The notes: a model not told the origin generated them from the letters alone. Counted from the stretch's first letter, positions 19,196 to 28,821 are shown. The stretch: DNA of 52,636 nt from Dehalococcoidia bacterium (GCA_030740155.1 JASLXV010000037.1:1-52636); one strand, 5' to 3'. Numbers and translations are program-made.

Positions 19196-20110
19196 TCAGG
19201 TTTGCCTGGCCCGGTAGCTCAGCTCGAAAAGCTCGCCGAGAATATCGAAGAAGCCCGGTCCGTCCACCGGCCCGGCGACCGCGACCGGCCCATTCGCGGC
19301 GATCACCCGCGTCTCCCCCCAGCGAGCCGGGTCGGCAATCTCGACGGTCAGGGTCAACTGCTCGCAGGTGGCCAACCGCGGGTCCAGGGCCACCGCCAGG
19401 GCCAGGGGGTCGTAGAACTCGAACCGCTCCCGCAGGGGGTCCCGGTGGAACCAATTGCCAAGGAGTTGAACCGCCAGCCGGCCCAGATGTGAGGAGGTTT
19501 TCCTACTGCCCAACTCGTCCCTGGTCACGGTAACCTGGCGTGCCGCCCCGAGGTCCACCAAGGTCAACGGAACCCCGGAAGACAAGACCTGATGGGCAGC
19601 CATCGGGTCGCTGTAGAAGTTGAATTCGGCGTTTGGGGTAACGTTCCCTGCCACGTTGACCGCCCCGCCCATGACCACCAGCGAGGCCGCCCGCTCCAGC
19701 GCCCCGGGATGCCGCCGCAGCAGGTGGGCCAGGTTGGTCAGCGGGCCCAACGCCACCAGGGTGATCTGGCCTGGGTAGCTCTGGAGCCGGGCGGCCAGGA
19801 AGTTCGCGGCCCCGGGTTCCACGGGCCTGCCTTGGGGCTCGGGTAGCCGCCGCGAGAGCCCGCCAGGCCCGTGGAAGCGGTAGGCGTAGGAGTAGCGGCC
19901 CCGGATGGGCCGGGCGGCGCCGCGAGCCACGGGTATTTCCGGCCGGCCGGCGTACTCCAGCAACGCCAACGCGTTCCTGGTGCCGCGGGCCAAGGTGACG
20001 TTGCCGCCCACCGTGGTCAGGCCAAGCAGGTCCACGCTGGGGCAGGCCAGCGCCATTAGTAGTGCGATGGCGTCGTCCACCCCCGGATCGGTATCGATGA
20101 TTAATTCGAT
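19196..20110 (-). CDS. Inosine/uridine-preferring nucleoside hydrolase family protein; start codon anomalous
   Basis: Frame extends upstream of GTG20080 as IELIIDTDPGVDDAIAL; also TVGGN, LGPLTNLA, MGGA, AEFNFYSDP, YDPLA motifs. Confidence 0.82.
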   Translation of the reverse strand: MELIIDTDPGVDDAIALLMALACPSVDLLGLTTVGGNVTLARGTRNALALLEYAGRPEIPVARGAARPIRGRYSYAYRFHGPGGLSRRLPEPQGRPVEPGAANFLAARLQSYPGQITLVALGPLTNLAHLLRRHPGALERAASLVVMGGAVNVAGNVTPNAEFNFYSDPMAAHQVLSSGVPLTLVDLGAARQVTVTRDELGSRKTSSHLGRLAVQLLGNWFHRDPLRERFEFYDPLALAVALDPRLATCEQLTLTVEIADPARWGETRVIAANGPVAVAGPVDGPGFFDILGELFELSYRARQT

Positions 20111-21105
20111 GGGTCGGCCCTTGCTCTAGCCGGTTCTTTGCCAACAACGCGGGAGTTGGCGTAGGCGCTCAAGGCTTCCGAGGAGGTGTGCCAGAACCGG
20201 TACCCGGTCGCCCGGTGCAGACCTCCCGTGTCGAGCACCATCGGATACCGCACCAGGTCCAGTCCGCAGGAGGTGGACTCGCGTTGGATTCCGAGCTTCC
20301 AGGTTAGCTGAACCAGCGGGTAAGCCAGCAACGGCGGCAGACTCACCAGCTTGCTCTTTATCATTTTGGCCATCTCCCGGTAGAACACCACGCCTTCGCC
20401 GGCCACGTTGAAGACGCCGGGCAAGCCCCGTTCGATGATGATGGTCAGCACTCTGGCCAGGTCATCCTCGTACAGAAATTGAAGGGGGGGGTCGTAATCC
20501 AGCACCCCCAGCAACCACGGCCGGAAGAAAGCCTTGGTGACGGTATTGGCCGCCGTGGGACCCAGCACAATGCACGGACGGAGGACCGTAACCGTCATCC
20601 TTTGATGCTCCTGGGCAAACTCGCCGATCATCTGTTCAGCCAGGAATTTGTCGTAACCGTAGGGGAAATCCGGCGCCGGCCGCAGGGGGGCCGCGTCGGT
20701 CAAGGGAATGGGATTGTCCTCGTGAGCCCCGTAAACCGTGTGGGAGCTGAGGTAGATGAAGTGGCGCACCCTGGCCCGCAGGCAGGAATCCAGGACCGCC
20801 TTCAGAGCGTCCAGGTTGGCCTGGCGAATTGAAGCAACTTCACGACGGTTGCGGCCCCGCCTGGAAATGAATGCCAGGTGCACCAGGGTGGTGACCCGGT
20901 TGCGGCGCAGAACATCCTCAATGGACTCCGTAACGTCCTGGCGGTGAACGGTGATGTTGTGGATCGGGAAAGGCAGGGGATTGATATCGATGGCCACGAG
21001 CTTGCGCTGCGCCCCTTCTTCCTCCAGGTTCTGGAGCAGGCTGGTTCCAATGTACCCGGAGGCGCCGGTGACGGCCACCACCGTATCCCGTCGATCTTCA
21101 GTCAC
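20101..21105 (-). CDS. NAD-dependent epimerase/dehydratase (extended SDR)
   Basis: VAVTGASGYIG Rossmann motif, VHLAF, YLSSHTVYG, YGYDK (YxxxK). Confidence 0.88.
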   Translation of the reverse strand: MTEDRRDTVVAVTGASGYIGTSLLQNLEEEGAQRKLVAIDINPLPFPIHNITVHRQDVTESIEDVLRRNRVTTLVHLAFISRRGRNRREVASIRQANLDALKAVLDSCLRARVRHFIYLSSHTVYGAHEDNPIPLTDAAPLRPAPDFPYGYDKFLAEQMIGEFAQEHQRMTVTVLRPCIVLGPTAANTVTKAFFRPWLLGVLDYDPPLQFLYEDDLARVLTIIIERGLPGVFNVAGEGVVFYREMAKMIKSKLVSLPPLLAYPLVQLTWKLGIQRESTSCGLDLVRYPMVLDTGGLHRATGYRFWHTSSEALSAYANSRVVGKEPARARADPSN

Positions 21106-21307: not shown

Positions 21308-22183
21308 TTACCCGCGGGTTGGCGGCAGAAGGGGCAGCACGCTGGACAACCAAGTCTGAGCGGTAACCCGCACCTTCTCCGGTTTACTCAAAGAGATCCG
21401 GTGGTTCAGGACGTCGTAACCGGCGTCTTCGATACGATCCAGCACCTTCCGGTACAGTTGGCCGAGCACCGCGGGGCAGGCCCGGGAGCGAAACGAGAGA
21501 TAGGGCAAAAGCTGAAATCCGCTCCGGAAGTACCATTTGGCGCGGTCGGCTTGATGCCGCATCAACTCGATGAAGGCCGGGTTGACGACCCGGGCCTGCA
21601 ATTCCGCCTCCGAATACCCGAAGCGGGCCATCTCGTCCTGGGGCAAGTAGATCCGGCCGAACTCCAGGTCCTCCCGCACGTCCCGGGCGATGTTGGTCAG
21701 CTGCATGGCCAGCCCCAGGTCAATGGCGTGCTCCTTGGCCGCGGGGTCTTTATACCCGAAGATTTGGATGCAGATCAACCCCACCACCGAGGCCACCTGG
21801 TAGCAATACCGGCGCAGTTGCTCGAAGTCTTCGTACCGGTCTTTGACCAGGTCGCACTCGACCCCGGATATGACCTCTTGGAAGTATTCCTGGGGAATAT
21901 CATACCGCTCGGCGACGTCGGCCAGGGCCATGAAAACCGGGTCGCCGGGGTGCCCCAGGTAGGTTTTTTCAAGCTCTTTTTGCAAACCGGCCAACGCGGC
22001 AAGCTTCTCATCTTGGGAGCCCAACCGGTCGACGGCGTCGTCGCAGTACCGGCAGAACGCGTAGGCCACGTAGATGGCCCGGCGCCGCACTGCCGGGAGC
22101 GTCAGGAAAGCGTAGTAGAAGTTCTTGGCTTCCCGTAGCGTGATCGACCGGCACTCGTCGTAGGCCAAATCCAGATCTGTCAC
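21308..22183 (-). CDS. hpnD: Phytoene/squalene synthase family protein, HpnD-like
   Basis: AKNFYYAF, YAFCRYCDDAVD, YCYQVASVVG, LGLAMQLTNIARDVRED...GRIYLP; last gene of the hopanoid cluster. Confidence 0.78.
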   Translation of the reverse strand: MTDLDLAYDECRSITLREAKNFYYAFLTLPAVRRRAIYVAYAFCRYCDDAVDRLGSQDEKLAALAGLQKELEKTYLGHPGDPVFMALADVAERYDIPQEYFQEVISGVECDLVKDRYEDFEQLRRYCYQVASVVGLICIQIFGYKDPAAKEHAIDLGLAMQLTNIARDVREDLEFGRIYLPQDEMARFGYSEAELQARVVNPAFIELMRHQADRAKWYFRSGFQLLPYLSFRSRACPAVLGQLYRKVLDRIEDAGYDVLNHRISLSKPEKVRVTAQTWLSSVLPLLPPTRG

Positions 22184-22226: not shown

Positions 22227-24758
22227 TTATTCCCCCACCACCTGCACCATCACCTCCCTGGGTCGCGCACGGTCAAGCTCGATGAAAAAGATGCTCTGGT
22301 AGGGGCCAAATTGCATCAGCCCGTCGATTACGGGCACGGTCTCGCTGGTACCCAGCAGCAGGTGTTGCACGTGGGCATGGCCGTTGGGTGACTCATCTGA
22401 ACTCATATTGACGGTCCGGATACTGAAGTCGTTGTGGTCGTACCCGCCGTTGCGGGGCGACATCTGCTCCAGGAATTTGGCCATATCCTGGAGCAGCAGT
22501 GGCTCGTTCTCATTGATTTTCACCGCGGCGGTAGTGTGTTTGGAGTAGACCACCGCGAAGCCGTTGCTGACGGTGGATTTGGCCACACATTTGCAGACCC
22601 AGTCGGTGATATCAATGAACTCCGGCGCCCTTTGAGTGCTTAACTGGAGGCAAAAAGATTTGCTTTTCATTATGTTTTCCGATCCTTCCTGTCTCCCTGC
22701 GATTGGAAATGCACCGTCGGTCACAACGGTCTCGGTTTTTCTCTGGGCATCGCCCTTTGCGTTGAGAAGCCTAGCATACCGGCCCAAGGCCATCAACGGC
22801 CAGGTGTTCCGGTACAGGTGGTAGTTGATCATGAATCCGGCCGGCATATCCAGCCCCTGGTGGCCTCGTTCTCCGGGTCTTGGAAGGGTATCCACCCGCT
22901 CTCCCACGCCATAGCCGGGGAAACCGGTGCCGGTGAAATACGGCTCGTCCCAGCAACCATCCCGGTTCTGGGTAGTCAGCAAGTAGCGGATTCCCCGTTG
23001 GGTTGCCGGGTGGGCATCTTCCCCCGCGGCCAGCAACGCCATCAAGGCCCAGGCGGTCTGCGAGGCCGTGCTGGCCCCTACCCCACGGAGCGCCGGGTCA
23101 ACGTAGGAACCGCAGCTTTCCCCCCAACCGCCATCACCATTCTGGTGGGCCAGAATCCAGTCCACGGCCCGGCGGATGTAGGGTTGGTCCCTGTCTTCGC
23201 CCATGGCGGCCAGCGCCGGCAACACGGCCCCGGTCCCGTAGACGTGGTTGACGCCCCAGCGCCCGAACCAGGACCCGTCTTCTTCCTGCTCTTGACGTAG
23301 ATAGGCGTAAGCCCGGCGCAGGGCCGGGAAGTGGCGGTCGTAACCCAGCCGGCCAAACATCTCCACCAAGTGAGCGGTGACATCCGCGCTGGGTGGGTCC
23401 AAAGTCTCTCCAAAGTCGGAGAAGGGAAGCATGGTAAGGTGCTTGCGGCCATTGTCCTTGTCGAAGGCGGCCCAACCGCCGTTCTTGGATTGCAGGGCCA
23501 GCAGCCACTCAACACCGCGGCCGATGGCCTGCTCGCGGAGATGGTCAATCGCAGGGTCGAGGCGGGCCGAAGTGAGAGCCACTACCACTTCCGACGCGTC
23601 GTCGATATCCGGATACCGGTCATTATGGAACTCGAAGGACCAGCCGCCGGGTTGGGTGTTCTTGGCCCGGACCTGCCAATCGCCGGCGGTCAAGATCTGC
23701 TGGTCCAGCAGCCAGCGGGTGGACCGGCGCACCATGGGATCGTCCTCCGCCACCCCGGATTCCAGCAGGGCCTGCTGCGCCAGACAGGTATCCCAAACCG
23801 GGGACATGCAGGCCTGGACCATGCAGGTATCTTCGTCCTCGATGGCATATCCCTCGAATCCCGCATACCCTTTTTCCATCACCGGGTGGCCGGGTGGAAA
23901 CCCCAGGTGATGCAATGCGATGAGGGAGTAGACCCAGGGCGGCTGGATCCCGGCCCAGCAACCGTCCGCTTCTTGATGATCCAGGATCCAGTCGACGAGT
24001 CTCTTCTCCGCCCTCGCCCGTAAGGGGTGAACCGGAAACTTCCGGTACAATCCGGCAATCCGGTCCAGGCGGTGCAGCACCCCGGCCCAGCCCCACCCGG
24101 TCTTGGGCTTGGGAAGCGAGTAATCGGTCTCGTTCCGGGGCAGGGGGTAAATCTCGTCGATGCAAGCCGACTCGGGCACGGGGCAACTGGGCCGGTGAGT
24201 CAGAATGAGAAGCATGGGCACCATGGTGGCCCGGGCCCAACTGGCGAACTCGTATAAGTTGAAAGGGACCCAGGAGGGCAGAAAGATCATTTCGGGGGGC
24301 ATGTTGGGCGTGCCCCGCCAGTCCCACTGCCCAAACAGGGCCAGCCAAACCTTGGTGAAGACGCGGACTTTGGGCACGCCCCCCCGAGACATGATAAAAC
24401 GCCGAGCCCGGCGCAGAGGTCCTGAATCCGCGGAGTAGCCGGCCAGTTTCAAGGCAAAGTAACACTCCACGGAGGTGCTCAAATCTCCGGGGGCCTGGTA
24501 GTACTGCCCCCAGGAGCCGTCCTCCCGCTGTTTGCTCAGGATGTAGTTGGTGACCTTACGCCAGCGCTCCCGGTCCTTCCGGCCCAGGAAGTAGCACAGC
24601 ATCAGGTACTCGGCCTCCATGGTGGCGTTCGTCTCCAGTTCGCCACACCAGTAGCCGTCCGAGTGCTGGCTTCGGCGAAAGTAGCCCTGGATGCGCCGGA
24701 TGGCCTCGTCCACAGCTTCTCTGACTGGTCTCTCCGTTGTGCTCGTCTGACTTCCCAT
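22227..24758 (-). CDS. shc: Squalene-hopene cyclase fused to a C-terminal YjbQ (UPF0047) domain
   Basis: YPDIDD (DxDD), repeated QxxDGxW motifs, GRWGVNHVYGT, TGTGFP. The last 147 aa carry YjbQ motifs IDIT, HTTA..INE, YDHND, NGHAH, GPYQSIFFIELD. Confidence 0.93.
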   Translation of the reverse strand: MGSQTSTTERPVREAVDEAIRRIQGYFRRSQHSDGYWCGELETNATMEAEYLMLCYFLGRKDRERWRKVTNYILSKQREDGSWGQYYQAPGDLSTSVECYFALKLAGYSADSGPLRRARRFIMSRGGVPKVRVFTKVWLALFGQWDWRGTPNMPPEMIFLPSWVPFNLYEFASWARATMVPMLLILTHRPSCPVPESACIDEIYPLPRNETDYSLPKPKTGWGWAGVLHRLDRIAGLYRKFPVHPLRARAEKRLVDWILDHQEADGCWAGIQPPWVYSLIALHHLGFPPGHPVMEKGYAGFEGYAIEDEDTCMVQACMSPVWDTCLAQQALLESGVAEDDPMVRRSTRWLLDQQILTAGDWQVRAKNTQPGGWSFEFHNDRYPDIDDASEVVVALTSARLDPAIDHLREQAIGRGVEWLLALQSKNGGWAAFDKDNGRKHLTMLPFSDFGETLDPPSADVTAHLVEMFGRLGYDRHFPALRRAYAYLRQEQEEDGSWFGRWGVNHVYGTGAVLPALAAMGEDRDQPYIRRAVDWILAHQNGDGGWGESCGSYVDPALRGVGASTASQTAWALMALLAAGEDAHPATQRGIRYLLTTQNRDGCWDEPYFTGTGFPGYGVGERVDTLPRPGERGHQGLDMPAGFMINYHLYRNTWPLMALGRYARLLNAKGDAQRKTETVVTDGAFPIAGRQEGSENIMKSKSFCLQLSTQRAPEFIDITDWVCKCVAKSTVSNGFAVVYSKHTTAAVKINENEPLLLQDMAKFLEQMSPRNGGYDHNDFSIRTVNMSSDESPNGHAHVQHLLLGTSETVPVIDGLMQFGPYQSIFFIELDRARPREVMVQVVGE

Positions 24759-24803: not shown

Positions 24804-25829
24804 CTACCTCCGGTTTCTCCCTCCCGTTCCGATTGTTTCTTTCGTCCGAGTATACCCGTGGTCAACGAACCACCTGACCGACCTCTCAAGGGCCGCCTCC
24901 ACCGGGCTCTGGGGCTGGCCCAACTCGCTGACCGCCTTCTGACAGCTAACGTACATTGGAGTTCTCGCCACCTTCAGCCCTTCCAAGGGTATCCGCGGCT
25001 CCCGGCCCAGGACTCTCCCCTCCACCAATTGGTCCAGGTACCCGGCTCCCAGGGCCAGCCAGTAGGGAGCACGCCACCGGGGCGCCCGCCGCCCGGTGGC
25101 TTCCTGGAGCATGGCGAATACCTCCCGCAGCGTCACGTTCCGGTTGCCCAGAAGATAACGCTGGCCCGGCTCTCCTCGTTCCATGGCCAGGATGTGCCCG
25201 GCCGCCACGTCCGCCACGTCGACCAGGTTCATGCCCGTCTCCAAGTATACCGGGATGCGTCCCCTCAAGAAGTCCAGCACCATCCTTCCGGTGGGTGTGG
25301 GCTTGACGTCCCAGGGACCGACCGGAGTGGTGGGATTGACCACCACCACGGGCAAACCTTCCGAAGCCATGGTCAGCGCCAGGCACTCCGCCCGGTACTT
25401 GGACTTCTTGTAGTGCCCCACCAGATGGCTGGGGTCCAGGGGGGTGTTCTCGGTCCCCAGCTCCCCGGCGGCCAGACCGACGGTGGACACGGTGCTGGTG
25501 TAAATCACCCTCGAAACCCCGGCTTGCCGGGCCGCCTCCAAGACGTTGGCCGTGCCACCAACGTTGGTCTGGTACACCAGGTCCGGGTCCGGCGCCCAAA
25601 AAGTGTACGCCGCCGCACAGTGAAATACCACCTCGCACCCTTGGAGGGCCCGGTCCACCGAATCCCGGTCAAGGATGTCCCCGGGTACTTGCTCCACCCC
25701 GGTGCCGTCGATTGTTAAGGTGTTGCTTCCCGGCCGGACCAGCGCGCTGACATCATAGCCACGCCGCCGGAGTTCTCTCGCCAGGTTGCCACCAACGAAC
25801 CCAGTAGCTCCTGTAACCAGGACTCTCAT
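24804..25829 (-). CDS. hpnA: Hopanoid-associated sugar epimerase/SDR HpnA
   Basis: Start MRVLVTGATGFVG at ATG25829 (ATGA overlap with hpnG stop); HCAAAY, YKKSK, VNPTTPVGPWDVKPTPTG motifs. Confidence 0.88.
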   Translation of the reverse strand: MRVLVTGATGFVGGNLARELRRRGYDVSALVRPGSNTLTIDGTGVEQVPGDILDRDSVDRALQGCEVVFHCAAAYTFWAPDPDLVYQTNVGGTANVLEAARQAGVSRVIYTSTVSTVGLAAGELGTENTPLDPSHLVGHYKKSKYRAECLALTMASEGLPVVVVNPTTPVGPWDVKPTPTGRMVLDFLRGRIPVYLETGMNLVDVADVAAGHILAMERGEPGQRYLLGNRNVTLREVFAMLQEATGRRAPRWRAPYWLALGAGYLDQLVEGRVLGREPRIPLEGLKVARTPMYVSCQKAVSELGQPQSPVEAALERSVRWFVDHGYTRTKETIGTGGRNRR

Positions 25830-26629
25830 CCAGGCCTGCTCCCGCCGGACCCGGCGGGCTTGGCGGGGGAAGGCGGATTCGCCCGCGGCTGGACGCCCCG
25901 CGCCTCGCTCGATTGCCCCAGGAAGGCGGTGGCGAAACGGGTCAGGGCCCTTTGGGCCCGAGGGAGCCGGCGGGCTAGCCCCAGCAAGGCGGGTATCCGC
26001 CACGGCATCACCGCAACGGTGACGGCGGCCCTGGTTCGGGAGCGGCTCAGGCCCAGCAGGTAGCCGGGCAGGGCCTGGTCTGCCGCATCCAGGACCACCC
26101 GGGCCGAAAGGAAGGGCACCCCCGCTTCCCGCGCCGCCGCCGCGACCCAGTAGTCTTCCATCTCCACGATGCCGACGGGGTACCGGAAGCGGATGGCCCG
26201 CTTGGCTTCGGGAGTCGCCACCAGGTGGTCGACCGTCAGGGAATCGCTGTTGACCCACGTCTCGCCGGCGGCAGTGGCGGCCCGGACCCCCTGCCGAAAC
26301 ATCTCCGGGCCCGGAGCCAGGTATTCCCCGGCCGGCTCCTGCCGGTAGTAGCGGGAAGACAGGACCAGGGTCCCGGCCCCGATAGCCGGGTCAACCCCGC
26401 CGGCAAACCCCAAAAGCAACAACCTTTCCATGGAGGGCGAACGATCGCCGTTCATCCCCTGGCGTTGCAACAGCGCATTCACAGCCGTCTGAGCCGCGGA
26501 CCTTCCCACGCCGATGACGCGGAGATCTGCCGCTACGGACGCCTCAGGCTCCGAAGCGTCGGCTCGTCCCTCCAACTGCTTCCGGAGGAGAACCAACTCC
26601 TGTTCCATGCTGGCGACGATGGTTAACAC
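25826..26629 (-). CDS. hpnG: Nucleoside phosphorylase-fold protein, HpnG-like (adenosylhopane nucleosidase)
   Basis: IVASMEQE, LLGFAGGVDP, VEMED, VPFLSARVVLD motifs; located between hpnH and hpnA; AGGAGG SD. Confidence 0.72.
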   Translation of the reverse strand: MLTIVASMEQELVLLRKQLEGRADASEPEASVAADLRVIGVGRSAAQTAVNALLQRQGMNGDRSPSMERLLLLGFAGGVDPAIGAGTLVLSSRYYRQEPAGEYLAPGPEMFRQGVRAATAAGETWVNSDSLTVDHLVATPEAKRAIRFRYPVGIVEMEDYWVAAAAREAGVPFLSARVVLDAADQALPGYLLGLSRSRTRAAVTVAVMPWRIPALLGLARRLPRAQRALTRFATAFLGQSSEARGVQPRANPPSPAKPAGSGGSRPG

Positions 26630-27720: not shown

Positions 27721-28821
27721 TCAATACTCTCGCCATGCCAGGTAGTCCACCAACTCCTCCGCCTCGGTCCTAGCCCAAGGCGGCAGCGGGATCGAGTCCA
27801 AAGCCTTCAGGGCCGCGGCGGCGCTAGCCTCTGTGACTCGCTGGGACTGCTCGCGGGCGCCCACCTCCTCCAGCACGGCCAGCACCCGGATAACGTCCTC
27901 TTCGTCCAGCTCCTCTTTCCGGTAGATCCGCATGAGGTCATCGCGCGCCGGGCCGCCGGCCTGGCTGAAGGCGACCACTACTGGGAAAGACTTTTTCCGG
28001 CGCCGGATGTCGTTGCCCGAGGCCTTCCCGATGGTGGTCTCATCCCCCCAAATGCCCAGGTAGTCGTCCCGGACTTGAAAGGCCCGGCCCAGGTAGCTCC
28101 CAACCTGCCGGAAAGCCTCGACCGCCGCTACGTCGCCACCAGCCAGCAGGGCCCCAATCTCGAGGCCGCTGCGAATCAAGGCCCCGGTCTTGAGCGCGAT
28201 CATCGTGAGGTATTCTTCGGTGGTAATGTCCGATCTGGACTCGAAGGCCATGTCCTGGCACTGGCCCTCGATCATCTCCAGGTAGGCGGAGGTCAATATC
28301 TCCGAGACCTTCAGGACCGTCTCCGGCGGCGAGTTCCGGCGGGCGGCCCCAAGCAGGGCCAGGTCCCCAACGGACTGCATGGCGTTGCCGGCCACCAGCG
28401 CTTTGGGTATTCCCCACAAGCTCCAGACGGTCGGCTGATGGCGCCGCTCCAGGTCCTGGTCCTGGATGTCGTCGTGGACCAGGGAGAAATTGTGGATGAG
28501 TTCCAAAGCGGCGGCGCCCGGCAGGGCCCTATCGGTTTCCCCAGAGAGGGCTTCACAGGCGAAGAGGCAGAGGGTGGGGCGCAGTGCCTTGCCCTGGGAG
28601 ACGGGCGACTGGGCCGGGTTGCCGTGCCGGTCTACCCACCCCAGGTGATACCGGAGCAACACGTGGAGATCGGCATCGTCGGAACCCGGCACCGACCTGG
28701 AAAGCTCCTGCTCCACCAGGTCCTTATACCGGGCGAACATCGCCGGAAGTTCCGGCCCGGTTCTCGCTTTAGCCATCGAGTTTCGGGTCATGCCACGACC
28801 AATCGCTTCCAAGTTGGACAA
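27721..28821 (-). CDS. Polyprenyl diphosphate synthase (FPP/GGPP synthase family)
   Basis: GKALRP, LVHDDIQD..RR (first Asp-rich motif), EGQ, KTG, FQVRDDYLG. Start may be ATG28791 or ATG28776. Confidence 0.9.
   Translation of the reverse strand: MSNLEAIGRGMTRNSMAKARTGPELPAMFARYKDLVEQELSRSVPGSDDADLHVLLRYHLGWVDRHGNPAQSPVSQGKALRPTLCLFACEALSGETDRALPGAAALELIHNFSLVHDDIQDQDLERRHQPTVWSLWGIPKALVAGNAMQSVGDLALLGAARRNSPPETVLKVSEILTSAYLEMIEGQCQDMAFESRSDITTEEYLTMIALKTGALIRSGLEIGALLAGGDVAAVEAFRQVGSYLGRAFQVRDDYLGIWGDETTIGKASGNDIRRRKKSFPVVVAFSQAGGPARDDLMRIYRKEELDEEDVIRVLAVLEEVGAREQSQRVTEASAAAALKALDSIPLPPWARTEAEELVDYLAWREY

Follow-up and report, generated by a model that had tools for sequence, protein, structure and literature searches.

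The window analysed here is a 52,636-nucleotide stretch of DNA from a marine Dehalococcoidia bacterium (GCA_030740155.1 JASLXV010000037.1:1-52636). It carries an open reading frame (ORF) in which a squalene-hopene cyclase (SHC) is joined to a complete YjbQ (UPF0047) domain. Comparison of sequences and gene neighbourhoods suggests that this long-loop type of YjbQ probably does not act on hopanoids but replaces Dxs at the head of the methylerythritol phosphate (MEP) pathway, by itself or with a partner. YjbQ points to precursor supply because it tracks the absence of Dxs and is fused to, or stands beside, isoprenoid enzymes. The join of cyclase and YjbQ is itself probably incidental. The fuller account that we favour, with a little less assurance than replacement as such, is a passive fusion whose YjbQ part, by itself or together with a partner, would take over from Dxs in providing deoxyxylulose 5-phosphate (DXP).

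The fused reading frame and its domains

22227..24758, minus strand: fused ORF, squalene-hopene cyclase plus YjbQ, 843 aa; single open frame, profile matches, and contigs of four studies bridging the join
22767..24758, minus strand: squalene-hopene cyclase domain, residues 1-664, YPDIDD at 373-378; TIGR01507, 784.9 bits
22671..22766, minus strand: linker, 32 codons; probably derived from the old C-terminal tail and the intergenic spacer; predicted to be disordered
22681..22700, minus strand: purine-rich block, 20 nt, 5' of the internal ATG; identical in G000 and G001; likely retained ribosome-binding region
22227..22670, minus strand: long-loop YjbQ (UPF0047) domain, 147 aa, own ATG; candidate Dxs replacement

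The genome of the window (G000, with the window as its contig C37) is a metagenome-type assembly, 93.7% complete. The nearest named loci are from Dehalococcoidia, several of them labelled SAR202, and the genome is placed in that group through these relatives. In keeping with the initial annotation, a full SHC, with the end sequence YRNTWPLMALGRY, runs in frame into a full YjbQ domain with intact HTTA, HND and NGHAH motifs; the linker, put there at about 30 residues, measures 32 codons (22766-22671), and the internal ATG at 22670 is preceded by the purine-rich block (22700-22681). Both parts pass their profile cut-offs: residues 6-615 match TIGR01507 with 784.9 bits (cut-off 431.1), and residues 704-843 match TIGR00149 with 112.9 bits (cut-off 67.75) and PF01894 with 109.8 bits, also above cut-off. 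The Pfam profiles agree with the assignment of both parts of the ORF.

Residues D375, D377 and D378 of the cyclase DxDD motif, which we take to be catalytic, are invariant in 38 sequences. On profile and motif the cyclase itself is an ordinary squalene-hopene cyclase (HpnF/Shc, TIGR01507): a full two-domain enzyme with DxDD, encoded in an hpnAGH/hpnD cluster, from which it differs in the added 32-residue linker and full C-terminal YjbQ. The YjbQ domain of the fusion is the only yjbQ found in this genome.

Long-loop YjbQ and the absence of Dxs

In the genome of the window DXR, IspF and IspH score above cut-off, and IspE and IspG are presumably present, on a motif only; searches found no Dxs match above cut-off, no HMG-CoA reductase and no IDI above cut-off. 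When four relatives are added, three of them in one or two contigs, Dxs scores above cut-off in none of the five genomes, and DXR and IspF are present in all five. YjbQ as a replacement for IspF or DXR was rejected, both being present, as was a mevalonate route as the explanation, given the missing HMG-CoA reductase and its presence in only 3 of 40 other carriers. A thiamine role for the fused YjbQ was also rejected; the genome has two ThiE matches and needs none.

A first batch of 80 Dehalococcoidia genomes was chosen on YjbQ or shc status, at a point when Dxs status had yet to be determined. Long-loop YjbQ was called above 200 bits, the next match being at 124.5, with a profile built partly from the same sequences. 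Dxs is found in 1 of 41 genomes with long-loop YjbQ and in 30 of 39 without it (Fisher p 7e-13), and nine genomes have neither. In a second batch, 36 genomes of known status after four of uncertain YjbQ status were left out (G099, G171, G307, G078), one of the 24 carriers has Dxs, against eight of the 12 non-carriers. Pooled over the class, with the genome of the window included, the figures are 2 of 66 with and 38 of 51 without long-loop YjbQ. The association holds within the five families that contain both states, taking one genome per genus and state (Cochran-Mantel-Haenszel p 0.002).

In eight genomes without long-loop yjbQ, dxs sits in the isoprenoid/hopanoid cluster. At the cluster position, three dxs-bearing genomes (G037, G030, G094) retain no more than C-terminal pieces of yjbQ, G094 keeping an intact yjbQ elsewhere in the genome; the dxs genes of all three lie within one tight, short-branched clade that spans six families. 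This arrangement is consistent with transfer of dxs followed by decay of yjbQ.

YjbQ and Dxs (TIGR00204) are alike in the predicted pathway step, in their complementary distribution and in overlapping cluster positions. They differ in that YjbQ has no homology to Dxs (no TIGR00204 match), has 147 residues against about 620, adopts another fold, and has no match to enzymes of the thiamine diphosphate (ThDP) type. Judged by its sequence, YjbQ is not a member of the Dxs family, and is a candidate analogue only.

YjbQ among isoprenoid genes

An isoprenoid gene lies within 1.5 kb at 67 of 120 long-loop loci and at 0 of 7 short-loop loci; this count covers loci with enough flank (32 with too little were left out), and the sampling favoured similarity to the query. 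Two loci with short or unparsed loops are also isoprenoid-linked. Among 53 longer proteins with a YjbQ domain, 45 carry SHC (7), a cis-prenyltransferase (7), IDI-2 (21) or a trans-prenyltransferase (10). A profile search added fusions to IDI-1 and to phytoene/squalene synthase, and two further fusions join IspH to YjbQ (G061, L172). RNase G, tryptophanyl-tRNA synthetase and PHP partners among the 53 were taken as likely chimeras. In P0124, P0140, P0226 and P0203 an intact YjbQ is joined to an IDI-2 or prenyltransferase-like partner that appears degraded.

The link is not tied to the cyclase: yjbQ remains beside isoprenoid genes in genomes that lack shc, and many shc clusters lack yjbQ. The initial annotation saw in the position of yjbQ a hint of a role in hopanoid metabolism. 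The direction was right, and the evidence points more broadly to isoprenoid precursor supply; a hopanoid-only role is too narrow because yjbQ stays by isoprenoid genes without shc, has fused with members of six further isoprenoid enzyme families and follows the absence of Dxs in its distribution.

Two loci with an intermediate-loop yjbQ also carry a gene for a RuBisCO-like protein (RLP). At L214 (3580-7747) the order is xseA-xseB-ispA-yjbQ followed by the RLP gene, so that yjbQ holds what we take to be the slot of dxs. In Ca. Thiodictyon (L292, NZ_CP020372, 4415-6736) yjbQ lies directly after idi and before the RLP gene, in a photosynthesis/carotenoid region. In the low-GC contigs L199, L202 and L208 yjbQ directly follows a prenyltransferase gene, which in L202 is an IDI-1-like/prenyltransferase fusion.

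Fold and possible chemistry of long-loop YjbQ

YjbQ proteins form metal-bound homotrimers, and three PDB entries of the family list three chains; a secondary activity as thiamine-phosphate synthase is reported for the family. The model of the fused domain matches the family structures closely (Z 21.1, root-mean-square deviation 1.2 over 137 residues, TM 0.88); fold searches gave no informative match beyond the family (next Z 5.1) and no nucleotide-binding fold. Residues H45, T46, E54, D62, H79 and H100 are invariant and E131 nearly so. The long-loop type shares this fold and these residues with YjbQ/UPF0047 (TIGR00149; PDB 2p6c, 1vmj, 1ve0, 1vph), and differs in an insert of about 11 residues between HND and NGHAH relative to the solved structures, in the subfamily-typical residues E56, R85, E93 and H98, and in its isoprenoid gene context.

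In the scheme that we propose, the cyclase stop would have been lost near-neutrally in a conserved operon, giving the fused frame, and YjbQ would open the MEP pathway by supplying DXP. Metal binding is a property of the family, and the invariant His, Glu and Asp residues would suit a metal site. A tentative and rather doubtful suggestion is that this His/Glu site performs enediolate-type chemistry on a five-carbon sugar phosphate, which the extra conserved Arg, Glu and His could hold. The C1 oxygen of ribulose or xylulose 5-phosphate might be eliminated, a separate reductase completing DXP; or 5-deoxyribulose 1-phosphate might be isomerised to DXP, a salvage variant suggested by the RLP neighbours at L214 and in Ca. 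Thiodictyon. Formation of DXP from ribulose 5-phosphate has a precedent in E. coli RibB mutants and YajO. The neighbouring short-chain dehydrogenase/reductase (SDR), nucleoside hydrolase, hydroxyacid dehydrogenase-like and aldolase genes were rejected as dedicated partners, since all persist in clusters that lost yjbQ.

In its most specific version, the proposal makes long-loop YjbQ a natural enzyme of some 150 residues that forms DXP without thiamine and so opens the MEP pathway in SAR202 and in other bacteria lacking Dxs; its repeated fusion would then place precursor supply at the membrane-bound cyclase, where hopanoids are made. We would put this a little short of an even chance.

In P0042, P0045 and P0048 the domain follows one with at most a weak rubrerythrin/ferritin-like match, which is not isoprenoid; the N-terminal extensions of P0210, P0217 and P0241 look, by eye, like algal plastid transit peptides; and the atlas also lists clusters from cyanobacteria and Minisyncoccota. 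Four genomes (G110, G164, G129, G327) have two long-loop copies, one beside shc and one solitary, near tungstate-type ATP-binding cassette and TldD genes.

Relation to known Dxs-less systems

Bacteria with downstream MEP genes and no dxs have been described (Marshall et al. 2023, PMC10663253; Rhodothermus marinus, bioRxiv 2021.05.17.444423), and the genomes discussed here resemble them. The former lists 181 Dxs-less MEP species, 172 of them unexplained; its main text names no candidate and contains neither yjbQ nor Chloroflexota. For Rhodothermus marinus, the preprint gives the entry route as not known. The established bypasses also yield DXP without Dxs: the methylthioadenosine-isoprenoid shunt (RLP plus cupin), E. 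coli RibB and AceE mutants, and YajO. A further likeness is the position of yjbQ beside RLP at L214 and in Ca. Thiodictyon; the differences are that the YjbQ fold is unrelated and that the genome of the window, at 93.7% completeness, gave no RLP match in tblastn with one query, a search made for the RLP component of the shunt.

A literature search, with most subscription journals outside its reach, found no paper tying YjbQ to the missing Dxs step or to hopanoids. The YjbQ family is widespread and so far without a physiological function, and how bacteria manage the MEP pathway in the absence of Dxs is recognised as an open problem. If the proposal is true, YjbQ would offer metabolic engineers the kind of compact Dxs substitute, differing in substrates or regulation, that PMC10663253 describes as desirable. 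The clusters also suggest that SAR202, which PMC5395668 discusses as a group that breaks down hopanoid-like material, may make hopanoids. Taken alone, the fusion is of modest interest; the link between YjbQ and Dxs is the more important result.

Alternative explanations

Several observations weigh against replacement of Dxs by YjbQ. The genomes are kin and hand-picked, so the p-values overstate. Both genes occur in G094, G023 and, probably, G171. Of the 51 Dehalococcoidia without long-loop YjbQ, 13 also lack Dxs, and four of those with neither gene (G005, G065, G095, G045) possess IspH but gave no yjbQ match of any kind; for such genomes another route exists or sequence is missing. Outside the class, 19 of 40 carriers keep Dxs: 14 of 15 with weaker or fused matches and 5 of 25 with strong ones (all five from one family), a split drawn after seeing the data. 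Ca. Thiodictyon, with its idi-yjbQ-RLP order, also has Dxs in the table of Marshall et al. No isoprenoid query match lies within 1.5 kb at 53 of the 120 long-loop loci with enough flank. As to mechanism, a route to DXP from ribulose 5-phosphate must draw on a reductant, and the neighbourhood yielded no dedicated partner; the genome of the window, 93.7% complete, gave no RLP match (tblastn, one query) and no class II aldolase match.

One alternative, which we regard as unlikely, keeps the passive fusion and assigns YjbQ to isoprenoid housekeeping, for example the hydrolysis of surplus prenyl diphosphates, with DXP made by a promiscuous transketolase or a ThDP enzyme of the pyruvate dehydrogenase type. 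Fusion or adjacency of YjbQ to IDI-1, IDI-2 and prenyltransferases would fit, as would the split transketolase-like genes in G002 and G028; a transketolase-like match of that strength is absent from G000 and G013. Published reports add a YjbQ-family side activity that displaces pyrophosphate, formation of DXP by E. coli aceE mutants and, as a weak point from a different subfamily, 1.08-fold pinene on yjbQ knock-down in E. coli. Housekeeping predicts neither the near-exclusion of yjbQ and dxs inside families nor the decay of yjbQ where dxs is present.

A shade less likely still, YjbQ may replace Dxs and yet enter the pathway later, at the rearranged DXR intermediate or at MEP, or serve as an accessory subunit in a bypass of several genes, the catalyst being encoded elsewhere. 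The distribution shows which step is replaced and not the product, and YjbQ has no nucleotide-binding fold, so that a net reduction needs a partner. Against this stand the retention of DXR in all five Dxs-less genomes tested and the survival, in clusters that lost yjbQ, of the adjacent genes for the SDR, the nucleoside hydrolase, the hydroxyacid dehydrogenase-like protein and the aldolase.

That long-loop YjbQ is a third type of isomerase of isopentenyl and dimethylallyl diphosphate appears very unlikely. In the 80 Dehalococcoidia, IDI-2 is absent from all 41 genomes with long-loop YjbQ and present in 6 of the other 39 (p 0.011), the genome of the window has no IDI above cut-off, and three fusions carry a decayed IDI-2 domain. 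All six IDI-2 genomes carry dxs, however, and the pattern can follow from a dxs cassette; outside the class, IDI-2 scores above cut-off in 23 of 40 carriers, in eight of them fused to YjbQ; and elsewhere IDI-1 is fused or adjacent to yjbQ.

Origin of the fusion

The fusion probably arose by near-neutral loss of a stop codon in a conserved shc-yjbQ operon. This is likely because none of the 80 closest GTDB loci carries the fusion, the sequence of the linker drifts freely and the fused cyclases do not form one clade. In those 80 loci, some of them from genomes that also appear here under a G number, shc and its stop are followed by yjbQ with its own ATG, bearing out the synteny that the initial annotation had proposed to check; the usual order is idsA-hpnH-hpnG-hpnA-shc-yjbQ-hpnD. 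Among 41 genomes only G000 and the same-genus G001 (87% identity), whose linker is also open, are fused; in 28 other shc loci from relatives a separate yjbQ lies directly downstream in 23, a remnant in one and none in four. Between G000 and G001 the linker has 50% amino acid identity, and its differences are spread evenly over codon positions (0.25/0.31/0.22), unlike both domains. The folded model shows two confident domains and a disordered linker (predicted local distance difference test score below 50 at residues 672-694), and no stable fold covers the purine-rich block (z 0.66). A free YjbQ would presumably still be made from the start at 22670, so the tether should matter little.

Of the two origins first proposed, stop-codon loss is thus supported, although not as a recent event: it had already occurred when the two species, now at 87% identity, separated. 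Fusions of this sort have moreover arisen at least four times. A search for the SHC-UPF0047 architecture found eight fused protein clusters, one of which (P0001) has 28 members. On quick cyclase trees the fused state changes at least four times, gain and loss not being separable by counts, and the approximately unbiased test rejects a single clade for eight fused cyclases among 28 rows (p-AU 8e-62).

The other proposed origin, selection for a bifunctional cyclase whose YjbQ part works on squalene, on hopene or on the cyclase, is highly improbable. SHC fusions did arise repeatedly and are stable within clades, and the lineage P0006, P0029 and P0030 has no Met at the usual YjbQ start. Most relatives nevertheless keep the genes apart, the linker is neutral, without a coding signature, and predicted to be disordered, and yjbQ persists without shc, is absent from many shc clusters and fuses to whichever isoprenoid gene adjoins it.

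An assembly error, conceivable for a metagenome-type assembly with 7.65% contamination, is refuted at contig level and can be set aside, as contigs span the linker without indel or listed difference in all four DNA runs, from four studies (X9 record 25, X11 record 2, X14 record 19 and X12 record 9, the last run flagged as a possible source of this DNA), and G001 and the cluster P0001 are fused too. The stop-free frame alone is weak as evidence, 25% of shuffled linkers lacking stops as well. RNA runs contained only small shares of the window.

The surrounding gene cluster

27721..28821, minus strand: trans-prenyltransferase (IdsA/IspA-like), first gene of the cluster; PF00348
26645..27685, minus strand: HpnH radical SAM protein; TIGR03470, 410 bits, above cut-off
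25826..26629, minus strand: HpnG-like phosphorylase; TIGR03468, 71.5 bits, below cut-off
24804..25826, minus strand: HpnA; TIGR03466, 418 bits, above cut-off
21308..22183, minus strand: HpnD; TIGR03465, 292.6 bits, above cut-off
20101..21105, minus strand: NAD-dependent epimerase/dehydratase-family protein; retained in clusters that lost yjbQ
19196..20080, minus strand: nucleoside hydrolase-family protein; PF01156

Promoter and terminator scans gave chance levels (3 against 2.3 expected, and 11 against 10.5). The cluster has hpnD without hpnC or hpnE, and no HpnE scores above cut-off in the genome; 59 of the 80 close loci likewise have a single synthase and no hpnE in the stretch examined. YjbQ as a stand-in for HpnC/HpnE was rejected, as 18 of the 80 have two synthases and hpnE beside yjbQ. 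A second gene of the squalene synthase/phytoene synthase family (G000:C80:90196-91230, L319) lies below every named cut-off. At L128 (8407-10911) an HpnE-like oxidoreductase and a 2-hydroxyacid dehydrogenase-like domain share one frame.
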